A stretch of 64,000 bases of DNA from Oscillospiraceae bacterium (GCA_022791315.1 JAAVYW010000060.1:12290-76289); one strand, 5' to 3'. Numbered from the stretch's first letter, positions 3,026 through 63,167 are shown. The notes: a model not told the origin generated them from the sequence alone. Translations and numbers: made by a program.

Positions 3026-4263
3026 ATGTCGCTCTCAAAATCCATTGATTTCCTGTTGGAAAACGGCGGGGACGTGCTGAAATACCGCCCCCACAGGGAG
3101 ATATTGCAGGACATCTCAAAGCCGCAGGAACAGGCCCTGCTGGAAAAAGTGCTGGAGACCCCTGCCTACAAGCTGCTTGAGCGCTATGTAAAGCCAAACG
3201 GGTATATCGGCATCGGCATGCACTCCTGGGATAAATTCAAGGAAACCCCGCTCCAAGACGGGGAGGCGGCGGCACGGCTCCTCTCCAACTATGCCATTCC
3301 CAAAAGCAGCCCTATTATCAAAAATTTCATTTCTTCCCTAAGAAACGACGAAATTCTTGAAAATGAATTCTCCTAAGAGGCCGCCCGTTTCCGTAACCGG
3401 CACCTGGGCCTTGCCAACGGCGGAGGCCTGATGGTGCTGGTGTATACCTGCCAGGCCCTGCTGGGCTATGGAGACGATGAAGAGGTCCTCCCCCTCCTAC
3501 CGTGCCTTTGAGAGCCTCCTGGGCATCACCTCCCTAGAGGACATCACCAGCTTCCACCCCCGCAGCAAGAAGAAATACAACTACCCCTATCTGGAGCAGG
3601 ACACCTATTTTCCCTGCCAATATAGTCAAAGCACTCCAAAACAGATACTTGTTTTGGAGTGAGCGGGCAGAGCGCGCGCTTTTGACTACGTAATGCGAAA
3701 CAGAGCCGCAAAAGCGGTTCTCTGCGGCCTCAAAGGCTGCAGACTTGAAAAGCACCGCTTTTCAAGTCTTTCGATTATACCACCTGGAAACCCTGGCCCA
3801 CACAAAGTCCTGGCGCAGCGAGGCGACGGTCTCTGCCTTTGCCCAGGCTGTCAACCACCATAGCCGGGTTGTGAAAGAGGGCAGCAACCTGCATGTGAAA
3901 ATTGGGGGCAGCTATTCTGTGCCGCTGTGGGCCTATCGCTATCCCTTCAAACCCTTTGAGCCCGCCAAGCCCGCCGGCACCGCCCTGCGCAAAACCCTGA
4001 CCCATCTGGCCATGGTCGGGGGCAGCCAAATTGACGTGGTGCGCCAATCCGCCGACGCAGTGCAGGAGGCCATCGCGCAGGACGGCGTCCTGCGGGTGAG
4101 GTTTGAGAGCCCCCACCACAAGCGCGTCTTCAAAAAGGCCCTGGAATTCCCCACCCCCTACAGCGAAATCGCCCTGGAACCCTCCCACAAAACCGATACC
4201 GCCCTCTGGTGCGAACTCACCTTCTGGGCCGTGCAGCTCCTGTCCATTCTGGGCGAAACCTGA
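3026..4263 (+). pseudogene. Decayed gene for a hypothetical protein of about 400 aa (in-frame stop, frameshift, hairpin-element insertion)
   Basis: Three ORF pieces lie in three frames (3026-3376, 3468-3662, 3745-4263). The protein-like sequence continues in frame after the TAA at 3374. The frame switches near a C-run at about 3490. The segment of about 150 nt at 3625-3777 is non-protein-like. Confidence 0.6.
3625..3777. repeat. Hairpin-string insertion inside the pseudogene (MITE-like)
   Basis: Consecutive palindromes: CTCCAAAACA..TGTTTTGGAG, AGCGCGCGCT, AGAGCCGC..GCGGTTCT, CTGCGGCC..GGCTGCAG and AGACTTGAAAAG..CTTTTCAAGTCT. The element is bracketed by TATA on both sides. Confidence 0.45.
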
Positions 4264-4402
4264 GCGCCCCTCTTGGCTTCTAGCCATATCCAAAACAAAT
4301 CCTTCTCCCTCTGCCGCCCAGCCCTGTGTATCCCCCGCACGCCAACGCCAGTTCCCCCATCCCCTGGCCTGACTCAATCCATCCGCAAAAGGAGGCATCC
4401 CC

Positions 4403-5215
4403 ATGTCCCACCTTCTGGAACCCTTTTTCCGGCAAAACGGCATCGAGTTTTCCGCCGCCCTGCCCTATGAAGATTCGCTCAAAGTCTTCCCCTGTGCCGC
4501 ATCCCGCCGCATCCCCGCGGGGAGCAAGACGGTTTTCCCCCTGCTGCTTCCCTACCGGGTGGCGGCTTTTTCCCGCCGCAACCTCTCCCTCTACGCCTGT
4601 GTGCGGGATTACCACCAGGTGGCGGCGGAGTTCCTGGGTGGCCTTTGCCGGGAGCTGGAAGCGCAGTATAACCACCCCTTCGCCGCCTTTTCCGACAGTT
4701 CCCCCTTTGACGAGGTATCCCTGGCCCACCGTGGCGCCCTGGGGGTGAAGGGGGAAAACGGTTTAATCATCAATGAGAAATACGGTTCCTATGTCTTTTT
4801 AGCCGAGCTTGTCACCCCCCTCCCCCTGCCGGAATACCCTGCCTACCATCCCGCCAGCTGCCCCGGCTGCGGGGCCTGCCGCCAGTCCTGCCCCGGCGGC
4901 GCACTGACGCCCCAGGGCTTTCTCCCCCAGCAGTGCGCCAGCTTTGTCTCCCAAAAAAAGGGTGCCCTCACCCCCCAGGAGCAGGCCCTCATCCGCCGCA
5001 GCGGCCTGGTCTGGGGCTGTGACCTCTGCCAAGAGTCCTGCCCTCTCAATCAAAACGCCGCCCTCTCCCAGTTCCCCCCCTTCCTCAAAAATCCCCTGGA
5101 ACGCTTCACGCCCCAGGACGCCCCCCGGCTGTGTAAGGAGTATGCCTTCGGGTTCCGCGGCCCGGCCGTCATCTTGCGAAATTACGAAATCCTTAATTGC
5201 GATTCTGATTTTTGA
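4403..5215 (+). CDS. QueG-like (DUF1730) 4Fe-4S epoxyqueuosine-reductase family protein
   Basis: CPGCGACRQSCP and CDLCQESCP ferredoxin motifs. The N-terminal region is of the DUF1730/QueG type. Confidence 0.55.
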   Translation: MSHLLEPFFRQNGIEFSAALPYEDSLKVFPCAASRRIPAGSKTVFPLLLPYRVAAFSRRNLSLYACVRDYHQVAAEFLGGLCRELEAQYNHPFAAFSDSSPFDEVSLAHRGALGVKGENGLIINEKYGSYVFLAELVTPLPLPEYPAYHPASCPGCGACRQSCPGGALTPQGFLPQQCASFVSQKKGALTPQEQALIRRSGLVWGCDLCQESCPLNQNAALSQFPPFLKNPLERFTPQDAPRLCKEYAFGFRGPAVILRNYEILNCDSDF

Positions 5216-5364
5216 GGATAATCTGGCTTTCTCCTGACCCTGCTGCGTACGCTCGACAAAATATCCCTAGGGATAGTGACAATGCGGGCGAAAAAGAGAA
5301 GAGTAGACAAAAAACGAGGATTGTGCCTGCCAACTGGCGGCACCAAAAGGAGGCGCGATAACCC

Positions 5365-7485
5365 ATGCTGGAACAAACACAGATGGAGCAGGAGCAGGTT
5401 CATCTTGCCCAGACCCAGGCAGAAATCGACAAACAGCTCTCCGCCTACGGGGAAGAGGCCGAGCTGTTGCGGCAGACCACCCGGGAGCAGCGCAAGTACA
5501 TCTGGGATAACCGGATTGACCTGGATTCCAAGGAGAGCTATTTTGAGGAAGCCGTGGCCGCCAAGTACACCGAATCCTTTGGCGAGACTTTTAATGAGTG
5601 GGTGCGCCTCAAACGGATGAAACAGAGCCCCTATTTTGCCCGTATCGATTTTGCCGAGCCGGGCGACCCGGCCGAGCAGGTCTATATCGGCTCCGGCTCC
5701 CTGGTGGACGACCGGAGCTTTGATGTCTATATCTATGACTGGCGTTCCCCCATCGCAGGCATGTACTATGATTTCGAGCTGGGCAGCGCCTCTTACCAGT
5801 GCGAGGCCGGGGAAATCAGCGGGGAAATCACCCTAAAACGGCAGTACCGCATAGAGCACGGCGTAATGAAGGAGGCATTTGACAGCTCTGTCACAGTGTT
5901 AGACGAGATTTTGCAGAGCATCCTCTCTGCCGACGCCCAGGAAAAGATGCGCCCCATTGTCACCACCATCCAGCGGGAGCAGAACACCCTCATCCGGGAG
6001 GAGGACTCTGAAATCCTCGTCATCCAGGGGGCAGCAGGCTCTGGCAAAACCTCTGTGGCGCTCCACCGGGTGGCCTACCTGCTCTATCGCCGCCGCAATA
6101 AGCTCAATGAGAGCAACATCCTCATCCTCTCCCCCAATGATTATTTCAGCGAGTACATCTCCGGCGTCCTGCCCGAGCTGGGGGAGAAAAATGTGCGCCA
6201 GCTCACCATGCCCCAGCTGATTTCCGCCGCCACCCCCCGCCAGGAGCAGGAGGAGCTCCCCGCCTATCTGGAGCAGGCCTATACGATTGGATACACCCCC
6301 GCCCAGCTGGAGGAAACCCGGCAAAAAACCTCTGCCCCTTTCACCCGTTTTTTGGAGGAACGCATTGCCCGCCTGACCCAGGAAGGCCCCTCCTTTACCG
6401 ACTTGACAGACGGCGAAGGCACTGTCATCCTCTCCGGGCAGGAGATGCAGGAGATTTTTTGCAGCTGCGTCCCCTCTTTCACCATGGTGCAGCGCCTGGA
6501 AAAAGTCTCCACCTACTTTGTCTCCCGTGCGGAAACCTATAAACAGCGCCGTCTCAGCGTCCTGCGCCAGCGCCTTCTGGCTAAAAACGGGGACAACTTC
6601 TACTTAGACAGCGCCGACCTGGACCGGGATGTGCGCCTGGCTTGGATGCAGCAGTACCATCAGCTCCGGGAAACCTTCTTTTCCTCTATCGCGCTGGACG
6701 AAGCAGCCCTCTATCAAGAGCTCCTCTCCGATTTCTGGGAGCCCAAGACCGGCGAAGCCTTTGCAAAGGCCTATGCCTCCGGCCGCCTCTCCTATCCCGA
6801 CGCCGCGGCCTTTGCCTATCTACGCCTGCTGCTGGGCCTCTGCAAGCCGGACGGGGACATCCTCCACGTGGTGGTGGACGAAGCCCAGGACTACAATTTC
6901 CTCCACTACCGGATGTTGGGCCGCTGGTTTTATAATGCCCGTTTCACCATCCTGGGGGACCCCTCCCAAATCCTCTCCCCCGCCCTCTTTGACAGCCGGG
7001 AGGGCTTCCAGTACATGCTGGACGCCTTCTCCCCCCGCCGCAGCGGCCTGAAAGCCCTGGAAAAACGCTACCGCTCCACCTGGGAAATCAACACCTTTGC
7101 CGATCGGATTTTAGGCCTCCAAGGGGAAAAAGTAGAGCGCCACGGCCCCACTCCCCAGGTGATAACGGTGTGGGATACGGCGGATTACGTCAAGCAGGCC
7201 TTCTCCCAGGCAGACGAGCAGGGCTGTGCCGTCATTGTAAAAACAGGCCGCCAGGCCACTGCCCTCCACCAGCAGCTGCGGGGCATTCCCGGCATCACCT
7301 GCATAGACGGCACTGCCCCCGTCTCCCTGGGCAAGCGCGTGATCCTTCCCGCCTACCTGGCGAAAGGCCTGGAATTTGACCAAGTAATCGTACTCACCCA
7401 AGGCTTTACTTCTCAGGACAATAACCTATTCTATGTCTGCTGCACCCGCGCCCTGCACCAGCTCACCATAGTCACCGAGGAATAA
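5365..7485 (+). CDS. helD: HelD-type UvrD-like helicase (RNA polymerase recycling ATPase)
   Basis: 706 aa with an N-terminal coiled coil, YFARIDF and IYDWRSPIA motifs, Walker A GAAGSGKTS, and a C-terminal UvrD_C-like end. Confidence 0.7.
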   Translation: MLEQTQMEQEQVHLAQTQAEIDKQLSAYGEEAELLRQTTREQRKYIWDNRIDLDSKESYFEEAVAAKYTESFGETFNEWVRLKRMKQSPYFARIDFAEPGDPAEQVYIGSGSLVDDRSFDVYIYDWRSPIAGMYYDFELGSASYQCEAGEISGEITLKRQYRIEHGVMKEAFDSSVTVLDEILQSILSADAQEKMRPIVTTIQREQNTLIREEDSEILVIQGAAGSGKTSVALHRVAYLLYRRRNKLNESNILILSPNDYFSEYISGVLPELGEKNVRQLTMPQLISAATPRQEQEELPAYLEQAYTIGYTPAQLEETRQKTSAPFTRFLEERIARLTQEGPSFTDLTDGEGTVILSGQEMQEIFCSCVPSFTMVQRLEKVSTYFVSRAETYKQRRLSVLRQRLLAKNGDNFYLDSADLDRDVRLAWMQQYHQLRETFFSSIALDEAALYQELLSDFWEPKTGEAFAKAYASGRLSYPDAAAFAYLRLLLGLCKPDGDILHVVVDEAQDYNFLHYRMLGRWFYNARFTILGDPSQILSPALFDSREGFQYMLDAFSPRRSGLKALEKRYRSTWEINTFADRILGLQGEKVERHGPTPQVITVWDTADYVKQAFSQADEQGCAVIVKTGRQATALHQQLRGIPGITCIDGTAPVSLGKRVILPAYLAKGLEFDQVIVLTQGFTSQDNNLFYVCCTRALHQLTIVTEE

Positions 7486-7500
7486 GCCCAATAACGTCCC

Positions 7501-7533
7501 AAAAGGCTCCCTTTTTAAAAAGGGAGCCTTTTT
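7501..7533. terminator. Bidirectional terminator after helD
   Basis: Perfect palindrome AAAAGGCTCCCTTTTT/AAAAAGGGAGCCTTTT. Confidence 0.75.
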
Positions 7534-7601
7534 ATAGTATAGTCTCTAAGTTTAATTCCCATTTATAATAATAATTATATATATTTTATAAACTTTTTTA
7601 A

Positions 7602-7635
7602 AAATACCTCCTACCCTGTGGGATAGGAGGTATTT
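7602..7635 (+). promoter_or_regulatory. Terminator-like hairpin that contains the SD of the XRE gene
   Basis: 11-bp stem AAATACCTCCT / AGGAGGTATTT. The 3' arm holds AGGAGG and runs into TTTTT just before the ATG at 7638. Confidence 0.5.
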
Positions 7636-7637
7636 TT

Positions 7638-8183
7638 ATGACAGTACTAATTACAACCAGAAAAAACATTGTCGCATTACGCAAAGCAAAAGGCCTGTCC
7701 CAAGAACAGCTGGCAGAGTATTCCAATATCAGTTCCCCGCTCCTGCATCATCTTGAAACTGGCTGTCAAAACACTACAATTGACACACTCCGCCGTATAG
7801 CAATTGCCCTGGGTGTCTCTCCGTTGGCCCTCGGCATCCTGTCACTTTCCGACAGTGAAATCCGGTCCGTCATTCAAAAGCCATCGTATACGCCGCCAGA
7901 GGTACGGTCCTTTCAAATCGGGGAAAATATTGCCCTGCTCCGGAAAGCCAAAGGATTCTCCCAGAGAAAGCTAGCGGAACTATCCCATGTGAGCGTTGCC
8001 CGCCTGCGGGACATCGAACACGGCTGCGCAAATGTTTCGCTAGCGCTTTTAGGGCGCATCGCCAAAGGCCTGGAAATCTCGCTGCCGGCCCTCGGCTCTC
8101 TGGGCCTATCTGACGAACAAGTATTGAGCCTGGTTTACCAGGCCAGAGCTGTGCTTGAAAATGGGGCCGCTCAAACAGTTTAA
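7638..8183 (+). CDS. XRE-family regulator with two tandem HTH domains
   Basis: Two internally repeated HTH_3-like units (LRKAKGLSQEQLAE... and LRKAKGFSQRKLAE...), each followed by an LG.L.LSD.E segment. Confidence 0.7.
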   Translation: MTVLITTRKNIVALRKAKGLSQEQLAEYSNISSPLLHHLETGCQNTTIDTLRRIAIALGVSPLALGILSLSDSEIRSVIQKPSYTPPEVRSFQIGENIALLRKAKGFSQRKLAELSHVSVARLRDIEHGCANVSLALLGRIAKGLEISLPALGSLGLSDEQVLSLVYQARAVLENGAAQTV

Positions 8184-8198
8184 CGCACAAACTCCAGA

Positions 8199-8227
8199 TT
8201 GACAAAAAACGACATTTCCTGTAAAAT
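8199..8227 (+). promoter_or_regulatory. SigA-type promoter, family A copy 1 mRNA
   Basis: TTGACA-17 nt-TAAAAT. Confidence 0.6.
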
Positions 8228-12827: not shown

Positions 12828-12934
12828 CCACCCAACTCAAACTCCAGAGAAGAAAGGGCATCCGGCAAAGCCGGATGCCCTTTTCCTATCATCCCCCAAA
12901 ATCAGGGAGAATCACAATCGCCTTATGGAATCTC

Positions 12935-17443: not shown

Positions 17444-18973
17444 ATGCTGCAAGTAAAGAACCTCACGTTAATCCACAAAAAGGACCTCACCACCCTTATC
17501 GAGGGCCTCACCTTCACCCTGGCCCCCGGCGACCGTGCCGCCATTATCGGGGAAGAGGGCAACGGGAAATCCACCCTGCTCAAGCTCCTCTTTGACCGGG
17601 AATCCGTAGACCCCTATGTGGAGTGGACAGGCGAAATCCAGGACAAGGGCCTGCGCAAAGGCTACCTGGCCCAGGAGCTCACCCCCGGGGAACTCTCCCT
17701 GCCGGTGTGGGAGTTCTGCCAGAGGAATCCCGCCTGGGCAGAGGCCAACCCCAAGGAGCAGGAGCGGGCCGCCCGCCAGGTAGGCCTAACCAGCGCCCTG
17801 TTCTGGGACGAGCGCCCCCTGGGCACCCTCTCCGGCGGCGAGCGGGTCAAGCTGCGCCTTGCCCTGTTGCTCCTAGACAGCCCCGATGTCCTGCTCTTAG
17901 ACGAGCCCTCCAACGACCTGGATGTCCCCACCTTAGAATGGCTGGAGGGCTTTCTCCTCCGCTGTCCCGCCCCGGTGCTCTATATCTCCCACGACGAGAC
18001 GCTCCTCTCCCACACCGCCAACCTCATCCTCCACCTGGAACGTCTCCGCCGCCGCACACTCCCCCGCTGCACCGTGGCCCGCAGCGACTATTCCTCCTAT
18101 GTGTCCCAGCGCCAGGCCGGCTTTGCCCGCCAGGAACAGCAGGCCCGCAAAGAGCAGGCCGAGTTCAACGCCAAGATGGCCACCTACCGCAAAATCCGGG
18201 ACAAGGTAGACCATCAGCAGAGCACCATCTCCCGCGCGGAACGGGATGGCCCCGGCCGTCTCTTAAAAAAGAAAATGCACTCCGTGCTCTCCATGGGCCG
18301 CCGTTTTGAGCGGGAAAAGGAGAATCTGACCGAGATGCCCGAATGGGAGGAAGCCATCCTCACCTCCTTTGACCCCGCCCGCTCTGCCATCCCCTCAGGC
18401 AAAGAAATCCTGCGCCTGGACCTCCCCCAGCTCACCGCCGGCAACCGTCTTTTGGCGGAACACCTGCGCCTATGGGTGACAGGCCCGGAACGCATCGGCA
18501 TCGTCGGCGCAAACGGTGCCGGCAAATCCACCCTGCTCAAACGCGTGGCAGAGGAACTGCTGTCCCGCCGCGACATCCGCGCGGCCTACATGCCCCAGGA
18601 CTACGGCGACTCCCTCCTGGGGGACAAAACCCCTGTAGACCTTCTGGCCCCCTCCGGCCAGAAAGAGGACATCACCCGCGCCCGCACCCTCTTAGGCTCC
18701 ATGAAATACAAAGCCGAGGAAATGGACCACCCTGCCGCAGCCCTTTCCGGCGGCCAACGGGCCAAGCTCCTCTTTCTCGCCATGGCCTGGGGCGGGAGCA
18801 ACGTCCTTCTTCTGGACGAACCCACCCGCAACTTCTCCCCCCTCTCCGCCCCTGTTATCCGCCAAGCTCTGGCCACCTTTCCCGGCACCATCATCAGTGT
18901 CTCCCACGACCGCACCTACTTGGAACAGGTCTGCACCCGTGTGCTGGAACTCACTCCCCAGGGCCTGCTCTAG
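17444..18973 (+). CDS. ABC-F family ATPase (two ABC domains, no TM; ARE/ribosome-protection-like)
   Basis: Start moved to MLQVKNL (AAAGGAGG SD). Two Walker A motifs (GEEGNGKST, GANGAGKST), two LSGG signatures, and a basic helical interdomain linker. Confidence 0.8.
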   Translation: MLQVKNLTLIHKKDLTTLIEGLTFTLAPGDRAAIIGEEGNGKSTLLKLLFDRESVDPYVEWTGEIQDKGLRKGYLAQELTPGELSLPVWEFCQRNPAWAEANPKEQERAARQVGLTSALFWDERPLGTLSGGERVKLRLALLLLDSPDVLLLDEPSNDLDVPTLEWLEGFLLRCPAPVLYISHDETLLSHTANLILHLERLRRRTLPRCTVARSDYSSYVSQRQAGFARQEQQARKEQAEFNAKMATYRKIRDKVDHQQSTISRAERDGPGRLLKKKMHSVLSMGRRFEREKENLTEMPEWEEAILTSFDPARSAIPSGKEILRLDLPQLTAGNRLLAEHLRLWVTGPERIGIVGANGAGKSTLLKRVAEELLSRRDIRAAYMPQDYGDSLLGDKTPVDLLAPSGQKEDITRARTLLGSMKYKAEEMDHPAAALSGGQRAKLLFLAMAWGGSNVLLLDEPTRNFSPLSAPVIRQALATFPGTIISVSHDRTYLEQVCTRVLELTPQGLL

Positions 18974-19016
18974 CGCTTTTGGCTTCCCCTCTCCCGGCGT
19001 CACTCCCAGCTTGGTT

Positions 19017-19222
19017 CTATCGCGCCGTAGGCAAAGTAAAGTTTCCGTTCACCCTTTTCAAAGGGTGGTGAAGACCAACTACGTTGGTCTGGCAAGAATC
19101 GCCTTGCGATTCTTGAAAGTCAAGCCGCAGGCTTGACTTTGTCGAGGGGCAAAGCCCCCGTCGCTCACCACAGTGAGCGAAATTCCCTTCTCCCAGGCGG
19201 CGTATTGATAACAAACCAAGGC
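19017..19222 (+). repeat. Mosaic hairpin element, copy 1 (conserved arms, 6 internal hairpins)
   Basis: The arms match 59031-59167. The core holds six abutting stem-loops with 5-11 bp stems. Confidence 0.7.
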
Positions 19223-19289
19223 TACCTCCCAGCCAACACGCCGCCTTCCACCCAGTTCCCCCTATCGCCATCACATCGCAACCTCTCGC

Positions 19290-19451
19290 CGCCTTTGCCA
19301 ACGGCAAACAGGCCCAGGCTTCATCTCGGCCTAGTCTTGTCGGTTCCCGCACCGACAAGCGGCTTCCTTGCCTTGCCGCAGGGAAGCGAAAGGCCCATAG
19401 GGGCAAGCCCCTATGTATAATCTGTATAGGAGCAAAGCTCCTATACAGATT
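19290..19451. repeat. Array of unrelated near-perfect palindromes
   Basis: TTTGCC-AAC-GGCAAA; CTTGTCGGT..ACCGACAAG; GCTTCC..GGAAGC; CATAGGGGC-AA-GCCCCTATG; and AATCTGTATAGGAGC-AAA-GCTCCTATACAGATT (15 bp). Confidence 0.7.
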
Positions 19452-19745
19452 TGGCAGTATCGGTAGGGGTCACTCGGGTGTCGGCGGACGCTCCGGTTGT
19501 TAGCGTTCTCCCCCTTTAGCAGTGACAAGGCCAGGTGAAGCGGGCTCGGTGCGGCCCCGATGTTAGTTCGCCTCGGCTCATTCGGGGGCAGACATGCTTT
19601 CACTAAGCCTCTCTATCCCCCCGCCCCCGCCCTTTTGGGGAAAGGGGGCCGCTTTTCCCGGGCTCCCTTTCCCTCTGTAAAGTTAGAATGCTGGCGCCGG
19701 CAAGTACCTAGAAAGATTTCGCTCTAGCCCCCATCCGGGCAAACC

Positions 19746-19787
19746 AAAAGGCCCTCTCCCGTGCTGCCGCACGGGAGAGGGCTTTTT
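19746..19787. terminator. Bidirectional terminator after the M23 peptidase gene
   Basis: AAAAGGCCCTCTCCCGTG-loop-CACGGGAGAGGGCTTTTT. Confidence 0.75.
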
Positions 19788-19791
19788 CCTT

Positions 19792-20616
19792 CTATTCTTT
19801 TCCCATCGTCGTCATGGGGTCTACAAAACCGCCGTCCTTTTTCATGGCAAAGTGCAGGTGGGTTTCCAGCGCCACCTCGGCGGTGATTTTTTCCGCCACC
19901 GAACCGATGGTCTGCCCAATCTCCACTGTGTCCCCCGCCTTTACGGCCAGCTCATCGTTGAGGCCGCAGTAAATGCTGGTTACACCGTCGGGATGGAGGA
20001 TTTCCACTGTGTTCCCCCACATGCCGTCCTTGTAGATTTTCGAGACCTTCCCGCCTCCGGCCGCCTTCACGGGTGTGGCGGCGTCGGCCTTGATGTCGAT
20101 GCCGTCATGGGTGCGCCAGTCTCCCATAGTGGGGTTTTTCACCAGCTCGCCGCCACTGAATGTCCCGATAATGTCACCGGATACCGGCAGCATATAGAGC
20201 ACGTTTTGCGAGGAGACGGATTGCGCCGGCTCTCCTGCACTCTCTGTAGAAACGGAAGAGGAATCCGAGGACTGCGCAGAGGAAGAGGCAGTCGAGGAGG
20301 AATCCTGCGTATCCGCCTTTGAAGTAACGGGCACATTGTCTGATTTTGTGTCTGCTTCCTGTAAACTTGGGGATGACCATTGGCTCTCCGCCTCCCGATT
20401 CAAATCCAGAATTTCCTGCGGGGTAAGGGTGTCCGCATTAGAGGTCAGCGGTTCCAGGGATTTGCTCTCAGGCGCCTCCTCCAAATCCTTCACCGTGGAG
20501 TTCACGGCAATCCACGCCGTCACGCCCGTTCCCACCAGGCACAGGGCCAGCGCCGCGTAAAAACCCTTCCCGCCAAATCCCCGGCCCCCATTTTCTTTTG
20601 TATTCATTGTTCCCAT
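19792..20616 (-). CDS. M23 (LytM) family metallopeptidase with N-terminal TM anchor (SpoIIQ-like architecture)
   Basis: Start moved to MGTMNTKE (AAGGAG SD). TM segment FYAALALCLVGTGVTAWIAV, S/T-rich linker, and a C-terminal M23 domain (HDGIDI ... LHFAM). Confidence 0.7.
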   Translation of the reverse strand: MGTMNTKENGGRGFGGKGFYAALALCLVGTGVTAWIAVNSTVKDLEEAPESKSLEPLTSNADTLTPQEILDLNREAESQWSSPSLQEADTKSDNVPVTSKADTQDSSSTASSSAQSSDSSSVSTESAGEPAQSVSSQNVLYMLPVSGDIIGTFSGGELVKNPTMGDWRTHDGIDIKADAATPVKAAGGGKVSKIYKDGMWGNTVEILHPDGVTSIYCGLNDELAVKAGDTVEIGQTIGSVAEKITAEVALETHLHFAMKKDGGFVDPMTTMGKE

Positions 20617-23268: not shown

Positions 23269-23618
23269 AAGCGAAAAAATACATAACCCTCGCCTGCTTA
23301 GGCCTTGTCCTGCTGCTCCTCATCGCCCTGCTGCGGTGCTGCGCCCTGTTTTTCGGGTATCATGAGGAGGAAACCTATACCTCCCCCGCAGGCACAAACA
23401 CCATTGTTGTCAAGTACGACATGCTGTGCCGCCCCGATGTGTTCCAAAAGGGCCTGTTGTGGGACAAAAAAATCTGGAGCTACCCTGGCTCCGGCTTTAT
23501 GGAAACCGTCCACTTCGGCGTAGAGTGGCTCTCAGAGACTGAAATCCTCCTCACCTACGAGGACATCCGCCACGACGAATTCAACGAAGCCTACCGCATC
23601 ACCCTCCCCGCCTCCTAG
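23265..23618 (+). CDS. Membrane-anchored hypothetical protein
   Basis: ATGA overlap with the upstream gene. One N-terminal TM segment. No recognised motif. Confidence 0.45.
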   Translation: MKAKKYITLACLGLVLLLLIALLRCCALFFGYHEEETYTSPAGTNTIVVKYDMLCRPDVFQKGLLWDKKIWSYPGSGFMETVHFGVEWLSETEILLTYEDIRHDEFNEAYRITLPAS

Positions 23619-23652
23619 AAAACCGGCCCCGGAAAACACCGGGGCCGGTTTT

Positions 23653-24300
23653 CTAATCCAGATAATCCAAGGCCTCCAGCGGCCAGCAAATGAGCTGGGC
23701 AGCGCCGTTTTCCAGCAGCTCCTCCCGCTCCCGGAACCCCCAGAGCACCCCAATCGCCAGGCAGCCCGCGTTATTGGCCGTGCGCATATCCACCCCGGAA
23801 TCCCCCAGATAGAGGCACTCCCCAGGGGAAATCCCCAAATCCGCCAGGTGGGGCAGCATCCCAGCGGGGTCGGGCTTTTTGGGCATCCCCTGCCCCATCC
23901 CCTGCACAAAGGCAAACCGCTGCCCGGGAAAGAGCGCCTCCACAATCCGCGCGGCAAATCCATGGTCCTTGTTGCTGAAGACAGCCGCCCCCACCTCCCG
24001 CTTTTCCAGCTCCTCCAGCAGCTCCAGGATACCGGGATAGGGGGCCGTGGTGTCCAGGCACCGGATTTCGTATTCCCGCGCAAAGAGGTCATGTACCTCC
24101 CGGATTTCCTCTTCCGATGTCCCCTGGGGCAAAATACGCCGGATGAGCTTGGGGATGCCTCCCCCCACAAAATAGCGGTAGAGCTCCCTGGGATGGGTGG
24201 GGAACCCCCGCTTCTCCAAGGCAAAGTTGGCGCTGTCCGCCAGGTCGCCCAGGGAGTTCACCAGAGTGCCGTCCAAATCAAATACGCATAGCCGCTTCAT
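23653..24300 (-). CDS. HAD-family hydrolase (phosphoglycolate phosphatase-like)
   Basis: Start moved to MKRLCVFDLDGTLVNS (DxDGT motif). C-terminal GDSGVD motif. Confidence 0.75.
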   Translation of the reverse strand: MKRLCVFDLDGTLVNSLGDLADSANFALEKRGFPTHPRELYRYFVGGGIPKLIRRILPQGTSEEEIREVHDLFAREYEIRCLDTTAPYPGILELLEELEKREVGAAVFSNKDHGFAARIVEALFPGQRFAFVQGMGQGMPKKPDPAGMLPHLADLGISPGECLYLGDSGVDMRTANNAGCLAIGVLWGFREREELLENGAAQLICWPLEALDYLD

Positions 24301-28611: not shown

Positions 28612-28852
28612 TCCTCTCGCGTTTCCAATATAATAACATTGCTCCGTTACATTGTCAAGCCCCTAATTCAACTCTGTTACGCCCATCGCCAGGCAAACAG
28701 GCCTTCCATCTCCTAGAACTCTTTTTCTTTTATGTAAATTTATTTTACTATATATCCATAAAAATGTCAACAAAATAAAAATTCGTTTGGTAATTTTGGA
28801 TTTCGGGTCTCTTCCGCAGGCGCACCCACGCCGGGTAAAAGCCCGGCCAAAC

Positions 28853-28878
28853 AAAAAAAGAGAGCCCAAAGGCTCTCT
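28853..28878 (-). terminator. Intrinsic terminator about 250 nt downstream of tRNA-Val
   Basis: On the minus strand, AGAGAGCC-TTTG-GGCTCTCT followed by TTTTTTT. Confidence 0.65.
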
Positions 28879-29127
28879 CAGCTTGTCAAAAAAACCATTC
28901 CCACGCCCGCAGGTGAGCGTCTCATTGTAATTCCCCGCAGCGGGCAAATTTTCCGACAACACACACATCGGAAGTTTTCTTCTATTCTGCAAGTGTGGCC
29001 CTCCTCCGCGGGCTGCGCGCAGCAAAGCGAAGGGACAACGGCCCGGAGCGAACCTCTTAGACTATAGGCTCTCTTTCAAAATCCGGGCAAAAAAATGCCG
29101 CCCCCACTATTGCAGGAACAGCACCCC

Positions 29128-29203
29128 TGGTGGACAATAACGGACTCGAACCGCTGACCCTTCGCACGTCAAGCGAATGCTCTACCAGCTGAGCTAATTG
29201 TCC
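29128..29203 (-). tRNA. tRNA-Val (anticodon GAC), CCA encoded
   Basis: Hand-folded cloverleaf: acceptor GGACAAT/ATTGTCC, D stem GCTC/GAGC, anticodon stem TTCGC/GCGAA with loop TTGACGT, T arm AGCGG-TTCGAGT-CCGTT, 76 nt. Confidence 0.9.
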
Positions 29204-52850: not shown

Positions 52851-52976
52851 GCACCGGGAACACGGGAAAGGCCCGGCCCATAAGGCCCCCTTTCCCGCCT
52901 TCTCTTTTTAGAAAAGCACTGCCGGCCAAAAACGTAGAAAGCGCTTTGAACAGAACCAAGCGCTATAAAATCCGAT

Positions 52977-53365
52977 TTGGAGGGGCTCATTGTGAAAATA
53001 ATAGGGCTGCAAGACAGGCCCCCCATCTTGGTGCAGCAGTTATTAGAGGTATGGGAAAAATCAGGAGAGGCAACACACCTGTTCCTGTCAGACTGGGAAG
53101 GATTCAGCACAATGTCCCACAGGCGTTCACTGCTGTTGCACATCTCATCATGGCAGAAAATGAAGATGGGCGCCCGGTTGCTTTCATGGGAAAAGGGCTT
53201 GGGAAATGCCTGATGCAGTACGGTATCGAGCACTACAAGATTCAAGAATTAACCGTAAACGAACAAAATCCACAGGCCAAACGTTTTTGGCTTCCAAGCC
53301 TACAAAAAAGCGAGTACGACCAGCAGGGCCGTCCCTATCCCCTCGTATCTATGCGCCGTCCCTAA
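52977..53365 (+). pseudogene. Decayed GNAT acetyltransferase gene
   Basis: GNAT-like pieces are split between two frames (ORFs 52977-53213 and 52946-53365). The acetyl-CoA-binding segment is truncated (VAFMGKGLGKCL). Confidence 0.5.
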
Positions 53366-53444
53366 CCTGCGATTCCGATATTTTGGCGCATCACTTCAAA
53401 AAGCGGCATTGGCAGCGCCAATCTAAAAAGAAGTTCCCAGCCCC

Positions 53445-53473
53445 TTGACAATTATTAGGTACAGTAATATAAT
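53445..53473 (+). promoter_or_regulatory. Promoter of the EamA-like gene
   Basis: Perfect TTGACA-17 nt-TATAAT. Confidence 0.65.
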
Positions 53474-53504
53474 GAAGGTAAACAGAAGAAGAGGGGATTT
53501 CAAC

Positions 53505-53939
53505 ATGCAGCAGCTTCAAAGTATTTCCTGGATTATCTACGCCGTTCTCTCGGCAATTTTCGCGGCGCTCACCTCCATTTTAGCCAAGGTGGGCATCACG
53601 GGCCTCAACTCCAACTTAGCCACCGCCATCCGCACCGCCGTGGTGCTCCTGATGTCCTGGGGCATGGTGTTCGTGGTGGGTGCCCAGGGGGAAATCAAAA
53701 ACATCACCGGCAAGTCCTGGCTGTTCTTGGTGCTCTCCGGCCTTGCCACCGGCGCCTCCTGGCTTTGCTATTACAAGGCCATCCAGCTGGGTGATGTGTC
53801 CAAGGTAGTGCCCATTGACAAATTCAGTATCGTCCTCACCCTGGCTATGGCCTTCCTCTTCCTCCACGAACCCGTCACCCCCAAGGCCCTCATCGGCGCG
53901 GCGCTCATCACTGCCGGGACATTCGTGATGATTCTCTAA
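53505..53939 (+). CDS. EamA-like (DMT superfamily) small transporter
   Basis: Start moved to MQQLQSISW. Four to five TM segments with an EamA-type pattern. Confidence 0.65.
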   Translation: MQQLQSISWIIYAVLSAIFAALTSILAKVGITGLNSNLATAIRTAVVLLMSWGMVFVVGAQGEIKNITGKSWLFLVLSGLATGASWLCYYKAIQLGDVSKVVPIDKFSIVLTLAMAFLFLHEPVTPKALIGAALITAGTFVMIL

Positions 53940-55364: not shown

Positions 55365-55540
55365 GCTCGCCTCTTTCCCTTTGGGTTCCATCTCCATCTA
55401 AACCTCCAATTCCAGGCCATTCTCCCCCACAGGCCTATCGCGCCATAGGAAAAATTTCCGGGCCAGCAAAGGCAAAGCCTGGGGCCGCCCTCCACGCAGC
55501 CCCTCCTCTGCCAGAACCTTTGCCAATGGCAAACAGGCCC

Positions 55541-55945
55541 TCACTCCCCCCTATAGCTCTTCATATGCTCCAAAATATGCCCAATGTTCCCCTCCCCCGC
55601 AAACTTTTCCAGGGAAAAGAAATCCTCGTCCATCCCCAGCCATTCCAGCGGGTTCTCCTCCCCCGCCACAGCAACCTCTTCCCGCAGCGTGCCCGCATAC
55701 ACCTCCAGCCGGCAGCCCTCGTCGTAATAGGTAAAATCCATCATATGGGCCAGGGTAATCTGCTCCCTGGTAATCCCCGTCTCCTCCCAGAGCTCCCGGT
55801 AGGCGGCTTCCAGCCCGTCCTCCCCCGGTTCCAGCTTTCCCCCCACCAGGTTATACTTTCCCCTGTATGGGTCCTTCCTCCGGTGGCAAAAGAGCAGCTT
55901 GCTCTCATCCGGCGTAAACACGGCAATCAAATTGACCTTCCTCAT
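55541..55945 (-). CDS. NUDIX hydrolase
   Basis: Nudix box GGKLEPGEDGLEAAYRELWEETG. Confidence 0.8.
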   Translation of the reverse strand: MRKVNLIAVFTPDESKLLFCHRRKDPYRGKYNLVGGKLEPGEDGLEAAYRELWEETGITREQITLAHMMDFTYYDEGCRLEVYAGTLREEVAVAGEENPLEWLGMDEDFFSLEKFAGEGNIGHILEHMKSYRGE

Positions 55946-58989: not shown

Positions 58990-58995
58990 CCCCTC

Positions 58996-59026
58996 AGGGC
59001 TGTTTTCACAACAGCCCTCTCTTTTT
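58996..59026 (+). terminator. Intrinsic terminator after typA
   Basis: AGGGCTGTT-loop-AACAGCCCT followed by CTCTTTTT. Confidence 0.7.
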
Positions 59027-59030
59027 CCCT

Positions 59031-59167
59031 CTATCACGCCGTAGGCAAATGAAAGTTTCCGTCCAACCTTTCCAAAGGGTGGCAGGTCCAGGACAGCGTC
59101 CTGGTCGCTCATCGCAATGAGCGAAATGCCCCTTCTCCCAGGCGGCGTATCGATACCAAACTAAGGC
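59031..59167 (+). repeat. Mosaic hairpin element, copy 2 (same arms as 19017-19222, shorter core)
   Basis: The 5' arm CTATCACGCCGTAGGCAAATGAAAGTTTCCGTCCAACCTTTCCAAAGGGTGG and the 3' arm TCGCTCATCGCAATGAGCGAAATGCCCCTTCTCCCAGGCGGCGTATCGATACCAAACTAAGGC align to copy 1. Confidence 0.7.
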
Positions 59168-59200
59168 GTGCACCCAGCCCACCGAAAGGAGCCCTCCCCC

Positions 59201-60184: not shown

Positions 60185-60319
60185 GCCTCACCTTTCCCTG
60201 AGATTGATGAAAAATATTGACTTCACTACTCTTTCCCAGTATCCTGATATAGGAATTAGGTCTGTCAAACAGTCAGTCTTTTGAGAATTGACTGTTTCTA
60301 TCTTGAGGAGGGCATCATC

Positions 60320-61054
60320 ATGTCAGGCTCAAAGTGCAGAGAACAATCTGGAACCCCCGCTATGAATCGATGGGAACAGTCCATTTTTGATATGTACCTA
60401 CAGTATCATCTTGGCAAGAGCGAGGCCTGTCAACGGTGCCGGCAAGCAAGTACAGGCCTTTCCCGACCCATATCGATATGGCATGTAGGCACTTCCTATG
60501 AGGAAAGCCCCTATAAGATTCTGTTCGTCGGCAAAGCGGCTAGAGGCAGTATCGTGGAAGCGCCCTTCTATATGGATACGGTGGAAGACGCCACCGTTAT
60601 TGCAGCAGATTTGTACTACAATAGCGGCTGGGCCTTTTGGGGGTACACCAGAGCTATCGCCAACGCAGTCTATGGGGAAGAGAACGCTTGGGAGCAAATT
60701 GCTCTTACCAACATGGTTAAATGCAATCGTTCCGATACCGTTGACACCACAATACAGGACGCCAAAATCAGCTGCGCCGAATATCTCCGGCGGGAAATTG
60801 CATTGCTGTGCCCCCGGCATATCGTGTTTTACACCAACGCAGGCTATGATGAAGCAATCCAAAGGGCATTTGACCGGATAGAAGATTCCCAATACCAAGA
60901 CTTCCCCTGCGGCAAAAAGGCCATGCACCTTTGGGCCTTTACCGGCGTTATTGGTGAAAGCCGGATAAAGGCAATCCGCACCGGGCACCCTGAGCGGATG
61001 AAAAAGGGGGATTTTACCAGCCGGATTATTGATTTTATTCTTGGAAAACAATAG
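60320..61054 (+). CDS. Hypothetical protein, uracil-DNA-glycosylase-superfamily-like
   Basis: Start moved to MSGSKC (GAGGAGGG SD). ILFVGKAARG and TGHPERM are loosely reminiscent of UDG family 4/5 motifs A and B. Low GC. Confidence 0.4.
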   Translation: MSGSKCREQSGTPAMNRWEQSIFDMYLQYHLGKSEACQRCRQASTGLSRPISIWHVGTSYEESPYKILFVGKAARGSIVEAPFYMDTVEDATVIAADLYYNSGWAFWGYTRAIANAVYGEENAWEQIALTNMVKCNRSDTVDTTIQDAKISCAEYLRREIALLCPRHIVFYTNAGYDEAIQRAFDRIEDSQYQDFPCGKKAMHLWAFTGVIGESRIKAIRTGHPERMKKGDFTSRIIDFILGKQ

Positions 61055-61183
61055 CGGAATCCAGAGAATCCCAAAATAAAAAGACGTCAAAAAATGTTCC
61101 AGCTGCCCGCTGTGATTCTCCGGAGCAATATCAATGAAAATGGGAAAGCCCCCTCGCTGTATTCCGGCGAGGGGGCTTTTCTC

Positions 61184-62296
61184 TTATTCCCCAAAATACT
61201 CTGCCATTTCCCTCATCCGCCTGCTCTGCTCCACCTGGAAAGGGCAGCGCCGGTCGCAGTGGCCGCAGTCCCGGCAGGCCGAGGCCTTCGTCCCCAGCTT
61301 CCGGTAGTGGTTTTTCGCCATCTCATCCCCAGCCCTTGCCAAATCATAGTACTTGTTCACCAGCCCGATGTCAATGCCCGCAGGACAGGGGTGGCAGTGG
61401 CTGCAATATACACAGTGCCCCTCAATATCCTTGGGCGTAAGCTCCCGGATAAAGGCGTAATCCCTCTCCTCCTGCGCGGCATCGGGAAACGTGAGCAGCT
61501 CGTTTAGGTCGTCCAGCCCCCGCACACCGGGCACAACAGTGAGCACGCCGGGGCAGTCCAGCGCGTATTGGATACACTGGTTCCTGGTCATTGCCCGGCC
61601 AAAGGGGGACTCCCTGGCATCCAGCAGCTTGCCCGCGTGGAAGGGCTTCATCACCGAAATACCCACCCCCTCCTCCTGGCAGCGGCGCAGCAGCGCCGCC
61701 CGCTCCCCGGCGCTTCCCATACCCAGGTCGTCCGAGTACTCAAAATCATAGGCAGCATTGACGCTGAACATCATCATGTCAATAAACCCGGTATCCAATA
61801 TCCGGTTCGCCGCCTGGGGCGTGTGGGAGGAAAATCCAATATGGCGCACCACACCCTGCCGCTTTAACTCCTGCACCAGGTTCACAATGCCGCCCTGCTC
61901 CAGCTTTTCAAAGTCCTCCACCTTATCAATGCAGTGGAGAAACCCCATGTCAATATAGTCCACGCCCAGGGTTTCCATCTCCCAGTCAAAGGTGCGTTTG
62001 ATGCGCTCGGCGTCGGTTGTCCATCCGTAGTTCCCCTCCTCGTCATACACCGCGCCAAAGTGCAGCTGGAAGAAAATCTTCCTCCTGGCCACCGCCCGGA
62101 TTGCCCGGCCAAAGGGCGCATACACATTGGCCGCCCCGCCGCACAGGTCAAAGTAATTCACCCCGTTCACAATGGCCCTCCGCACGGTATGCTCTATTTC
62201 CTCGTCGGGCGCCCTCTGGATGCCCCCCATCCCCAGGCCCAGCACACTGAATTTCTCATTTTTCTCCCCGTGGGGAAGCTGCCGGTATTCCATCAT
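61184..62296 (-). CDS. Aldo/keto reductase with C-terminal 4Fe-4S domain
   Basis: Start moved to MMEYRQLP. AKR core, then CVYCSHCHPCP and CRDCGHCDRRCP. Confidence 0.75.
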   Translation of the reverse strand: MMEYRQLPHGEKNEKFSVLGLGMGGIQRAPDEEIEHTVRRAIVNGVNYFDLCGGAANVYAPFGRAIRAVARRKIFFQLHFGAVYDEEGNYGWTTDAERIKRTFDWEMETLGVDYIDMGFLHCIDKVEDFEKLEQGGIVNLVQELKRQGVVRHIGFSSHTPQAANRILDTGFIDMMMFSVNAAYDFEYSDDLGMGSAGERAALLRRCQEEGVGISVMKPFHAGKLLDARESPFGRAMTRNQCIQYALDCPGVLTVVPGVRGLDDLNELLTFPDAAQEERDYAFIRELTPKDIEGHCVYCSHCHPCPAGIDIGLVNKYYDLARAGDEMAKNHYRKLGTKASACRDCGHCDRRCPFQVEQSRRMREMAEYFGE

Positions 62297-62399
62297 CTTC
62301 CATCTGTCCTTTCCTGTTGGGATGGTTCCATTATAATTCCTCCGCCCCAAAATAGCAAATACCCCGTTTGCATCCCCGGCAATACCCAAAACACATACC

Positions 62400-62864
62400 C
62401 TATCCCAAATACTTCGCCAAAAGCAGGCAGGGATTGGCCTCGTCCCACAGCGTGGGGAATACCTCCAAGGGCCGGAACCCCATGGCATAGTAAAACTCCC
62501 TGGTCTTGGCATACCCCACGTCCTCCCTGGAACTGTCCAGCGTCTTCACCGTGAGGAATTCCATCCCCTTCCCCCGGGCAAAGGCCTCGCATTGCCCCAC
62601 CAGCAGCCGTCCCACGCCCTTCCGGTGGTATTCCGGCCTCACCCCCATCACGCACACCTCCCCTGCATAGGGGCTGTGTTCCAAAAACGCCGCAAACCCA
62701 ATGGCCTTTTCCCCCGCAAAGGCCGCCCAGAGGGGCAGCTTCTTCACTTTCTCCACATAGTCCAGCAGCGATTCCTCAATCCCAAACCACTCCGGCAGCG
62801 CCCGTAGGATGCCCTCACACAGCGCCGCCTTTTCCACCCCATCCTGAATCTCCCTAATTTCCAT
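62400..62864 (-). CDS. GNAT family N-acetyltransferase
   Basis: Acetyl-CoA motif HRKGVGRLLV. Confidence 0.75.
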   Translation of the reverse strand: MEIREIQDGVEKAALCEGILRALPEWFGIEESLLDYVEKVKKLPLWAAFAGEKAIGFAAFLEHSPYAGEVCVMGVRPEYHRKGVGRLLVGQCEAFARGKGMEFLTVKTLDSSREDVGYAKTREFYYAMGFRPLEVFPTLWDEANPCLLLAKYLG

Positions 62865-62877
62865 CGTTTTCCCTCCT

Positions 62878-62912
62878 CAAAAACGGCAGGCCCCACCAGC
62901 GTAGGGCCTGCC
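62878..62912 (-). terminator. Terminator hairpin ending 2 nt before the SD of the GNAT gene
   Basis: On the minus strand, GGCAGGCCC-loop-GGGCCTGCC followed by GTTTTT, then GAGGAGGG and the ATG. Confidence 0.55.
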
Positions 62913-62921
62913 TCAGACTGT

Positions 62922-63167
62922 CGAAAAACCTAATTTTCGGAAAAGTCCCCTATTTTAAAATCATAAAAATCAGGACATGCGCCTGATTTTTATCCGGCGT
63001 GTCGAATCTTCGACACGCTTAACTCGCGCCACAGTGCGCGAAACCGGGGGTATCCATGCCGGTTCTGTAGGAACCGGCATGGTATCTAGGGGGTACCCGG
63101 TACCCTCTAGAAGCGCGTCGAACAAGTTCGACGTGCTTCGGCAGGACCCACGCTGGTGGGTCCTGCC
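62922..63167. repeat. Array of at least 8 abutting palindromes
   Basis: Stems of 6-12 bp, for example ATAAAAATCAGG/CCTGATTTTTAT, GCGTGTCGAA/TTCGACACGC, CCATGCCGGTTC/GAACCGGCATGG, CTAGGGGGTACC/GGTACCCTCTAG, GCGCGTCGAAC/GTTCGACGTGC and GGCAGGACCCA/TGGGTCCTGCC. Confidence 0.7.

Follow-up and report, generated by a model that had tools for sequence, protein, structure and literature searches.

The window analyzed here is a stretch of 64,000 nucleotides from an Oscillospiraceae bacterium (GCA_022791315.1), and it contains four loci, at about 3.6k, 19k, 59k, and 62.9k, that are built as strings of short hairpins. The reading favored here, with moderate confidence, is that these loci represent families of small, non-coding, non-autonomous modular repeats, similar to MITEs (miniature inverted-repeat transposable elements) and BOX elements, whose interiors evolve by hairpin-templated replication errors. 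Repeats of this kind are present in multiple copies, the copies are collinear at unrelated loci, one has inserted into a gene, and polymorphism is found at the level of the hairpins, including the inversion of loops.

Hairpin strings in the window

Perfect hairpins, counted as stems of at least 8 bp with loops of 2 to 7 nt, are represented by 38 distinct examples in the window, compared with 7.4 ± 2.8 in 30 dinucleotide-preserving shuffles of it. The hairpins form three clusters with at least three hairpins per 150 nt (19050-19180, 19336-19451, and 62963-63082), and the shuffles contain none. A genome-wide scan of this kind had been proposed in the original prediction, a description of the window that claimed a recurring texture of hairpin strings, and 16 of the 38 hairpins lie in the ~1.2 kb flagged there. 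Folded as single-stranded DNA and compared with shuffles, the loci reach z scores of −3.9 (59028-59170), −8.2 (19014-19226), −10.6 (3620-3780), and −14.0 (62880-63172). Owing to the excess of hairpins and clusters and to these fold scores, the texture at the four loci can be regarded as real and not due to chance. The fifth and last flagged region, 28829-29025, is rejected as a member, since it is single-copy and ordinary, with two terminator-like hairpins.

The predicted folds of all four loci show the same organization, with the ends pairing as a closing stem and independent hairpins arranged in a row in the multiloop. The stems across the elements have at least 20 different sequences, mostly perfect and with no constant tag. 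A T run is absent after most hairpins of the strings; only the hairpin at 58996-59018 and, on the minus strand, that at 62888-62915 (followed by TTTTT) have the form of a terminator. Isolated terminator-like hairpins occur at gene ends elsewhere in the window, for example at 7501-7532, 12853-12883, and 23616-23655.

Copy number and copies at unrelated loci

The window originates from a bacterium of mouse-gut metagenomes, and one of the loci is found in the metagenome-assembled genome GCA_948501285.1. Copy number was estimated from the summed word depth of Logan contigs, with contigs of four DNA runs mapped to 18700-19900. Run X1 shows a flank depth of 17-18 compared with 140-1860 over 18987-19601, with values of 140-860 in the proximal unit, 190-1119 in the middle modules, and up to 1864 in the 3' module of the 19k element (Table 1). 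The palindromes had been described as individually unique, which was taken to exclude simple amplification; three hairpins at 19069-19150, among those called unique, have a depth of 715-860 in this run. Depth amounts to 10-100 times that of the flanks over 19017-19600, 17-37 times over 59028-59162 (550-1200 compared with 30 in run X3), and 3-14 times over 3667-3779, and the palindromes are thus amplified as parts of repeat families. The ratios are alike in most independent mouse-gut runs, with repeat-to-flank values of about 35-60 in most combinations of run and locus, and this similarity across runs and loci suggests that the copies belong to one and the same genome. The family represented at 19k and 59k, termed family A, has tens of copies, and the family at 3.6k, termed family D, about 5-15.

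The contigs themselves carry the marks of a repeat. All contigs of the 19k locus break at 19082 and restart at 19544, and joints that skip sets of hairpins in other copies are found at 19048>19288, 19070>19144, 19090>19148, and 19415>19465. Public contigs and Logan contigs (L007-L010 and L038-L045) end inside the elements, at ~59098, 62943, 63006, 19082, and 19544, and contigs of ~3.85 kb span exactly the distance from the 59k element to the 62.9k element.

Pattern scans for further copies yielded chance matches only. When a genome collection was scanned for the degenerate left end CTATCRCGCCRTAGGMAAA, 25 single matches from unrelated phyla were obtained, none accompanied by the rest of the element, and the source species seems to be absent from that collection; a scan of metagenome contigs with a 21-mer of the right end gave four chance matches in coding regions, and two scans of viral contigs gave nothing. 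BLAST searches against plasmids (with the 19k, 3.6k, and 62.9k elements) and against phages (with the 19k element only) found no match. Other copies were therefore retrieved by translating open reading frames (ORFs) through the repeat and searching a protein collection, in which spurious ORFs had been called in the copies (P0001-P0009). The retrieved copies, on contigs L050-L054 and L057-L059, lie beside unrelated genes and align module by module with the 19k element at ~85-90% identity in the shared parts. Their neighbors include genes for a MutS-like/RNHCP protein, an FAD-binding oxidoreductase, and a 2-hydroxyacid dehydrogenase, and a further neighbor looks like MurA, judged from its C-terminal sequence. 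The units measure 86-600 nt and contain only spurious ORFs without Pfam matches.

Modular structure of family A

Family A is represented in the window by the copies at 19017-19615, 59031-59182 (copy B), and 55435-55545 (copy C), all on the same strand. The original prediction had placed the hairpin strings correctly but had ended the 19k locus at 19451 and missed the 55k copy. Alignment with the retrieved copies shows 19017 to ~19615 to be one composite element, comprised of a proximal unit, a middle section, and a 3' module. The proximal unit, which is collinear with L050, L052, and L053, folds with the closing stem GCGCCG/CGGCGT around its row of hairpins and corresponds to the entire extent of the 59k copy. 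Contrary to the claim that the loci and their palindromes bear no relation to one another, 19017-19237 can be aligned over its whole length with 59031-59182, except for three extra hairpins (H2-H4) in the 19k copy; the center of the unit holds four hairpins in the 19k copy and one different hairpin in the 59k copy. Both copies begin with the common left end CTATCRCGCCGTAGGCAAA..AAAGTTTCCGT, followed by the hairpin CACCCTTT-TC-AAAGGGTG, and close with the common right end GTCGCTCAY-CRCA-RTGAGCGAAAT.CCCTTCTCCCAGGCGGCGTATYGATA. L050-L054 carry the middle modules in collinear order, and these copies differ in the presence, absence, or flipping of single hairpins. The 3' module of ~150 nt could be aligned in eight copies and forms tandem repeats in L051 and L053; RNAalifold gave no consistent conserved fold for these eight copies on either strand, and the module is not put forward as an RNA gene.

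Copy C appears as a deletion derivative. Its 24-mer CCTTTGCCAATGGCAAACAGGCCC at 55517-55540 is also found at 19292-19315, and its junction of left end and 24-mer recurs in other genomic copies, where it is seen as the joint 19048>19288. At both ends, family A carries terminal inverted repeats with the sequence TATC..CGCCG in inverted orientation, which are short and imperfect, with an indel of 3-4 nt. The left flanks of the copies differ (GGTT, CCCT, AGGC, and GGGT) and show no common target of 4-5 nt. The 59k copy is located between the TypA terminator (58996-59018) and the start of Dus (59201). In the strain of run X17, ~30 extra bases, ACGCCGCCTTTTCCTCCAGGCAAACAGGTC, are found at its right end (59173-59182); by their sequence they resemble the next module of the long form and are read as a module polymorphism at the strain level.

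Hairpin-level differences between copies

The differences between copies mostly concern whole hairpins. The 19k copy of the window, L052, L053, and L057 carry the three hairpins at 19072-19140, which L050, L058, and the 59k copy lack. The hairpin GGCCAGC-GYA-GCTGGCC is found only in L052, L053, and L057; GGCCAAC-CTTC-GTTGGCC is found in L050, L051, L053, L057, and L059 and is missing from the window, and neither L051 nor L054 has the hairpin at 19419-19451. One slot is occupied by different hairpins, namely, GGGGC-AAA-GCCCC, CCAAAGGC-AAA-GCCTTTGG, or CCAGGAC-AGC-GTCCTGG, the first two of which have the common core GGCAAAGCC. The stems of the internal hairpins differ, and only some are paralogous: related hairpins in different slots are AGACCAAC.. 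and AGGCCAAC.., as well as CATAGGGGC.., which adjoins TATAGGAGC... Between the left end and H6 with the right end, the copies carry from one to at least four cassettes.

Besides these gains and losses, stems and loops change in a concerted manner. A two-sided stem change distinguishes TCGCTCAC..GTGAGCGA from TCGCTCAT..ATGAGCGA. Exact inversions of the loop between copies, with identical stems of 10-15 bp, are seen in CAAGAATCGC-CTT/-AAG, AAAGTCAAGCC-GCA/-TGC, and AATCTGTATAGGAGC-AAA/-TTT. The change of a 3-base loop to its exact reverse complement beside an unchanged stem of this length is not the product of independent point mutations at this divergence. It is regarded as the footprint of inversion or of template switching at the hairpin, the latter of which would be the mechanism; template-switch mutations with these patterns have been described for RNA genes (PMC8794818).

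Two further copies are of a more unusual build. L058, a diverged family A copy, carries at 520-653 (reverse strand) four further unrelated, back-to-back perfect hairpins in place of the 3' module. L059 shows at 1-703 (reverse strand) a head-to-head inverted duplication of ~100 nt centered on the hairpin CAAGAATCGC-CTT-GCGATTCTTG, the outcome that fold-back synthesis would give, although with a coverage of 0.48 it may be a sequencing or assembly chimera. L057 may likewise be a chimeric assembly, and L057 and L059 are given little weight.

A family D insertion in a decayed gene

The element at 3.6k interrupts a pseudogene at 2987-4263 and belongs to family D. In L055 and L056, two related contigs, the host gene is uninterrupted. 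At the site, the window reads CTGCCA-ATA-(3623-3776, 154 nt)-ATA-CCACCTGG, compared with CTGCCA-GTA-CCATCTGG for the empty site in L055; an equally valid reading takes TA as the repeat and 155 nt as the length of the element. The outer ends, TAGTC-AAAG and TAATCGAAAG, form an inverted repeat of ~10 nt that is short and imperfect, with one indel, and both units of the insertion are closed by versions of one such repeat. Depth separates the two units: 3623-3666 is single-copy, including the first hairpin (3632-3661), and the interior of unit 1 is unique; unit 2 is multi-copy, with a sharp right boundary at 3776/3779. The strain of run X14 carries 17 extra bases at 3667-3670 that alter the small palindromes there, a strain-level polymorphism within the array.

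Intact homologues of the interrupted gene, with 365-373 amino acids and no Pfam domain, are common in the protein collection, and the few with a source name are annotated as Clostridia, Clostridiales, or Eubacteriales. The closest homologue, P0011 (77% amino acid identity), reads across the junction as ...YFPCQY-HLETL.... Compared with L055, the pseudogene has also suffered a 9-nt deletion leading to a stop near 3375 and an 11-nt deletion leading to a frameshift near 3492.

The single-copy array at 62.9k

The element at 62.9k has the same build, with inverted-repeat arms enclosing a string of hairpins, and is flanked by a methyltransferase gene and a GNAT gene, both of which lie on the minus strand. 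It starts at 62885, not at 62922 as first proposed. The array at 62963-63167 is single-copy, and the depth of the element equals that of the flanks except at 62913-62962, where it reaches ~3 times that value. Within the element, the hairpin at 62997-63018 is related to that at 63114-63135, and each arm is an inverted copy of the other.

The element is kept in six strains, and apart from one linker substitution (63138) and one loop substitution (A/C in the loop of the hairpin at 62963-62993, in L001 and L005), all changes preserve the structure. A change of A to C at 63146 is paired with T to G at 63161, the two sides of one base pair; a change of AA to TT at 63124-25 converts the loop CAAG (63123-63126) to its exact reverse complement, CTTG; and a change of T to C at 63106 turns an imperfect palindrome into a perfect one. 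The single-copy array shows that the hairpin-generating process can act locally too.

As a side observation, the motif AAAAACCTAATTTTCGGAAAAGTCCCC within 62913-62962 has ~3 copies in the metagenome and is similar to AAAAAACTAGAAAAGTCCCC, found 3' of the 3' module in L050, L051, and L053; the repeat system may thus far include one module more than those described above.

Table 1. Features of the hairpin-string elements in the window
Feature	Position	Strand	Description
Family A proximal unit	19017-19237	+	Left end module CTATCGCGCCGTAGGCAAAGTAAAGTTTCCG; right end module GAGCGAAAT.CCCTTCTCCCAGGCGGCGTATTGATAA
Hairpins of the proximal unit	H1 19050-19067, H2 19072-19090, H3 19093-19115, H4 19116-19140, H5 19146-19158, H6 19161-19180	+
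Family A middle modules	19238-19464	+	CCTTTGCCAACGGCAAACAGGCCC at 19292-19315; hairpins 19336-19359, ~19361-19386, 19396-19415, 19419-19451
Family A 3' module	19465-19615	+	Core CAGGGGTCACTCGG...CAGTGACAAGGCCAGGTGAAGCGGGCTCGGTGCGGCCCCG; not built of perfect hairpins; highest copy number (~100x)
Family A short copy (B)	59031-59182	+	Left end, H1, different central hairpin CCAGGACAGCGTCCTGG, H6, right end
Family A deletion derivative (C), partial copy	55435-55545	+	Left end joined to CCTTTGCCAATGGCAAACAGGCCC module
Family D insertion	3623-3776 (154 nt)	+	Two units closed by inverted repeats, 2-3 hairpins each; inside decayed gene
Family D unit 1	3623-3690	+	TAGTCAAAGC..GCTTTTGACTA
Family D unit 2	~3693-3777	+	TAATGCGAAAC..GTCTTTCGATTA; ends one base past 3776, as the boundary of element and direct repeat is ambiguous
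Direct repeat ATA	3620-3622 (left), 3777-3779 (right)		From DNA alignment with L055 and the sequence itself
Single-copy element at 62.9k	62885-63167		41-nt inverted-repeat arms enclose a hairpin string
Arms of the 62.9k element	62885-62925, 63127-63167		Each itself a hairpin; 80% identity
Hairpins of the 62.9k element	62963-62993, 62997-63018, 63026-63043, 63054-63082, 63087-63113, 63114-63135

Origin of the repeats and alternative explanations

In the reading proposed here, each element consists of a scaffold that has imperfect terminal inverted repeats as its closure and encloses a string of short perfect hairpins. Such elements would spread as DNA, mobilized in trans by a transposase whose gene lies at another place in the genome, in the manner of MITEs. 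Once in place, their interiors change much faster than by point mutation, and the hairpin itself would serve as the template for intrastrand or strand-switch replication errors and slippage. Events of this type would delete or add whole hairpins, duplicate a neighboring hairpin, copy a change in one arm to the other arm, and invert loops. Since most copies lie in transcribed intergenic DNA, the elements probably act also as multi-hairpin RNA ends or attenuators, as a side effect and not as the reason for their existence. The original prediction had listed a family of MITE- or PATE-like elements with interiors changed by fold-back synthesis as its first explanation, and this one agrees best with the multi-copy status, the closure by inverted repeats, the insertion with a direct repeat, the indels of whole hairpins, the loop inversions, and the two-sided changes. 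The link to PATE, IS200/IS605, and RAYT is not supported, given the closing inverted repeats, the flanking direct repeat, the lack of a single REP consensus, and the lack of a Y1 gene in the window and the fetched neighborhoods.

Several observations weigh against repeats mobilized in trans. No transposase, Y1/RAYT, or integrase gene is found among the ~55 ORFs of the window by Pfam, as had been predicted, or in the fetched neighborhoods, nor was an autonomous element with matching ends found there. The terminal inverted repeats of both families are short and imperfect, and the boundaries of family A are fuzzy, with some copies having further modules on the left and on the right. The insertion site at 3.6k is the only one resolved, and its orthologue in L055 is only ~82% identical, so that the 3-bp repeat could be due to chance (1/64). 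Copy numbers are derived from the depth of metagenome contigs, to which related species in the same samples could contribute, and run X12 shows a much higher repeat-to-flank ratio than the other runs. The contigs of L053 and L059 have very low coverage, and these copies may be chimeric. Hairpin strings can also exist without amplification, since the 62.9k array is single-copy. Finally, seven of the eight family A copies have the orientation of a neighboring gene and RNA contigs cover the 19k copy, both of which would fit a selected role as RNA too.

Empty sites for the 19k, 59k, and 62.9k elements were searched for, but all near-identical strains carry the elements, and among more distant relatives no contig crosses these sites at 80% likeness.

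A more far-reaching version of the preferred reading, conceivable though unlikely, sees the scaffolds as "palindrome nurseries," in which perfect hairpins arise, are copied to new slots, flip, and vanish far faster than by point mutation. This could be brought about by a replication or repair background unusually prone to template switching or by a dedicated hairpin-handling enzyme.

Among the alternatives, selection for structured RNA is unlikely, though less so than the others. Here, the elements would protect 3' ends against exonucleases or serve as attenuators, terminators, or insulators; they would be multi-copy because they are useful, and pairing would be maintained by selection on the RNA fold. 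The elements do lie in intergenic transcribed DNA: the 19k element is located 3' of an ABC-F gene and convergent with an M23 peptidase gene, and the 55k copy is directly downstream of a NUDIX gene (55541-55945, minus strand). Contigs of run X30, a metatranscriptome, begin in the ABC-F gene and extend into the 19k element, with a similar depth in both (31, then 24, with an exact-copy contig at 19111-19314), and end before 19602, with no RNA contigs from there until ~19807. The element is thus contained in RNA contigs as a 3' extension of the ABC-F gene, with DNA carry-over possible. The two-sided changes preserve the pairing of stems, and one arm of the 62.9k element, located just upstream of the GNAT gene, forms a hairpin that precedes TTTTT. 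However, the excess of RNA over the flanks (~13 times) is below that of DNA, and the elements are not overrepresented in RNA contigs; a highly expressed small RNA, of which this ratio gives no sign, was rejected on the same ground. The third explanation of the original prediction, selected RNA or DNA structures, may or may not apply. Rfam 15 at the gathering threshold found only a tRNA in the whole window, and a search of 18950-19800 at an E value of ≤5 found nothing meaningful. Because loops repeatedly flip to their exact reverse complement, neither loop sequence nor strand identity is conserved, and the frequency of these inversions speaks against sequence-specific RNA loops. Whole hairpins come and go without replacement, one element lies inside a coding sequence that it destroyed, and two imperfect stems of the 62.9k element are G·T on the plus strand, corresponding to A·C in the minus-strand transcript. 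The loop inversions, the coding insertion, and the G·T pairs on the nontranscribed strand make a model based purely on RNA function less likely, and a secondary role is possible.

Mobilization as single-stranded DNA, with a Y1 HUH transposase (RAYT or IS200/IS605 TnpA) recognizing the hairpins of REP/BIME- or PATE-type elements, is very unlikely. REPs are known to cluster as mosaic BIMEs (PMC2817692, PMC3733652), hairpins dominate the elements, the three family A copies of the window lie on the same strand, and the left end contains GTAG (CGCCGTAGG). Yet no single REP consensus of 20-40 nt and no constant GTAG or CGTC tag beside the hairpins can be recognized, and the left flanks of family A lack a common target. 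An IS200/IS605-type insertion has neither closing inverted repeats nor a flanking direct repeat. The elements described here are closed by inverted repeats, and a direct repeat is present at the resolved insertion; a Y1 gene is found neither in the window nor in any fetched neighborhood.

An origin in place and without transposition, with fragile sites undergoing repeated rounds of fold-back synthesis or hairpin-mediated repair and with recombination or gene conversion accounting for the similarity between loci, is judged improbable to the same degree. The 62.9k array, single-copy yet of the same build and with nested inverted duplications, is consistent with such a process, as are the unique interior of unit 1 of the 3.6k insertion and the four additional unrelated hairpins of L058. 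A process of this type cannot yield multi-module copies with 85-90% identity, and it does not agree with the clean insertion in a gene or with the many unrelated loci at which collinear copies of 150-600 nt occur, each with a sharp boundary on the left and among them with heterogeneous flanks. Repair at fragile sites, the second of the earlier explanations, could apply only to the 62.9k array.

Ordinary intrinsic terminators and chance palindromes, a description suited to 28829-29025 and to the many isolated, terminator-like hairpins at gene ends, are hardly credible as an explanation and are refuted for the four main loci by the shuffles, which never contain clusters, by the fold z scores (down to −14), by the high-copy depth, and by the homologous copies elsewhere.

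Other features of the window

The ORFs of the window encode housekeeping functions such as ABC ATPases, RuvABC, TypA, Dus, two-component systems, and others. Two tandem duplicate pairs with 95% identity are found at 8251-8418/8548-8715 and 12150-12406/12489-12745. In each duplicate unit, a strong ribosome-binding site and a terminator accompany a small ORF, which encodes either 28 amino acids (MRITFHIGPFKVTITISKPADKNRHSAK) or a hydrophobic, lysine-tailed peptide of 26 amino acids (MTISEVLQLCLVIIAICNLFLQNKKK). The units are bracketed by complementary 5' and 3' segments (..CGGTAGGCGGTTGG.. and ..CCAACCGCTTATCG..) and have no Rfam match; they look like type I toxin-antitoxin-style cassettes. An EamA-type transporter gene at 52946-53939 appears to be split into ORFs at 52946-53365 and 53445-53939, with a Pfam match in the second only, and may be a second pseudogene. 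The single Rfam match mentioned above is a tRNA gene at 29131-29203 on the minus strand.

Relationship to known repeats and implications

Literature searches returned general repeat families only, and no description of the present families was found. The closest architecture is that of the BOX elements of Streptococcus pneumoniae and S. suis, modular repeats of the form boxA-(boxB)n-boxC (PMC3049150). Like these, the repeats are non-coding and interspersed, with pairing terminal modules that enclose a variable number of independently folding modules; both range from tens to ~600 bp, gain and lose internal modules between strains, are cotranscribed with their neighbors, and have an unknown mobilizing enzyme (PMC3049150). 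Unlike BOX elements, they contain many different perfect hairpins instead of tandem boxB copies, and their loops are inverted between copies. The similarity noted here is one of architecture, and the host is a GC-rich mouse-gut bacterium.

With MITEs that have TA or short target duplications, such as Correia, RUP, and Nezha (PMC3049150, PMC3184786), the elements share the small size, the lack of coding capacity, the multi-copy status, the high degree of base pairing, the ability to disrupt a gene, and, at least in outline, the terminal inverted repeats; one insertion here is flanked by a direct repeat of 2-3 bp containing TA, a candidate target duplication. Unlike in those MITEs, the terminal repeats of families A and D are imperfect and only ~10 nt long, the interior consists of unrelated hairpins and not of a single long stem, and no parent insertion sequence is known. 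REP, BIME, and REPIN elements (PMC2817692, PMC3733652) are likewise high-copy extragenic palindromes in mosaic arrays, mostly located after genes, with proposed roles in termination and mRNA stability. However, the REPs of a genome fall into one or a few sequence families and have GTAG/CGTC tags and imperfect stems, in contrast to the stems found here, of which there are dozens that differ from one another, are mostly perfect, and lack a constant tag; closure by inverted repeats, the flanking direct repeat, and the lack of a RAYT gene in the window and the fetched neighborhoods are further differences. The elements also differ from IS200/IS605-derived PATEs, which have no terminal inverted repeats and no target duplication and insert 3' of a fixed target of 4-5 nt.

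The changes within the elements correspond to template-switch hairpin mutations (PMC8794818) and to bacterial quasi-palindrome correction, with loop inversion, several simultaneous compensating changes, the perfecting of palindromes, and new stems beside old ones. The published work on template switching deals with how RNA genes evolve, mainly those for rRNA and microRNA (PMC8794818), whereas the present changes occur in multi-copy, selfish-looking DNA, between paralogous copies and between strains. In kind, the elements can be grouped with the known interspersed repeats of bacteria; the diversity of perfect hairpins within one scaffold and the density of template-switch-type differences are unusual.

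The elements add an undescribed high-copy repeat family of an uncultured gut bacterium, consisting of inverted-repeat-closed strings of sequence-diverse perfect hairpins. These repeats fragment the public assemblies of the species and give rise to spurious "proteins" in databases. If the scaffolds were indeed palindrome nurseries, they would constitute a hypervariable, genome-specific class of non-coding DNA, which the cell might co-opt as multi-hairpin RNA ends, and a natural system for measuring template-switch mutagenesis in bacteria. The paralogous copies provide a dense natural record of hairpin-level mutation that could be used to quantify bacterial template-switch mutagenesis, and this record could test whether apparent compensatory stem evolution needs selection at all.

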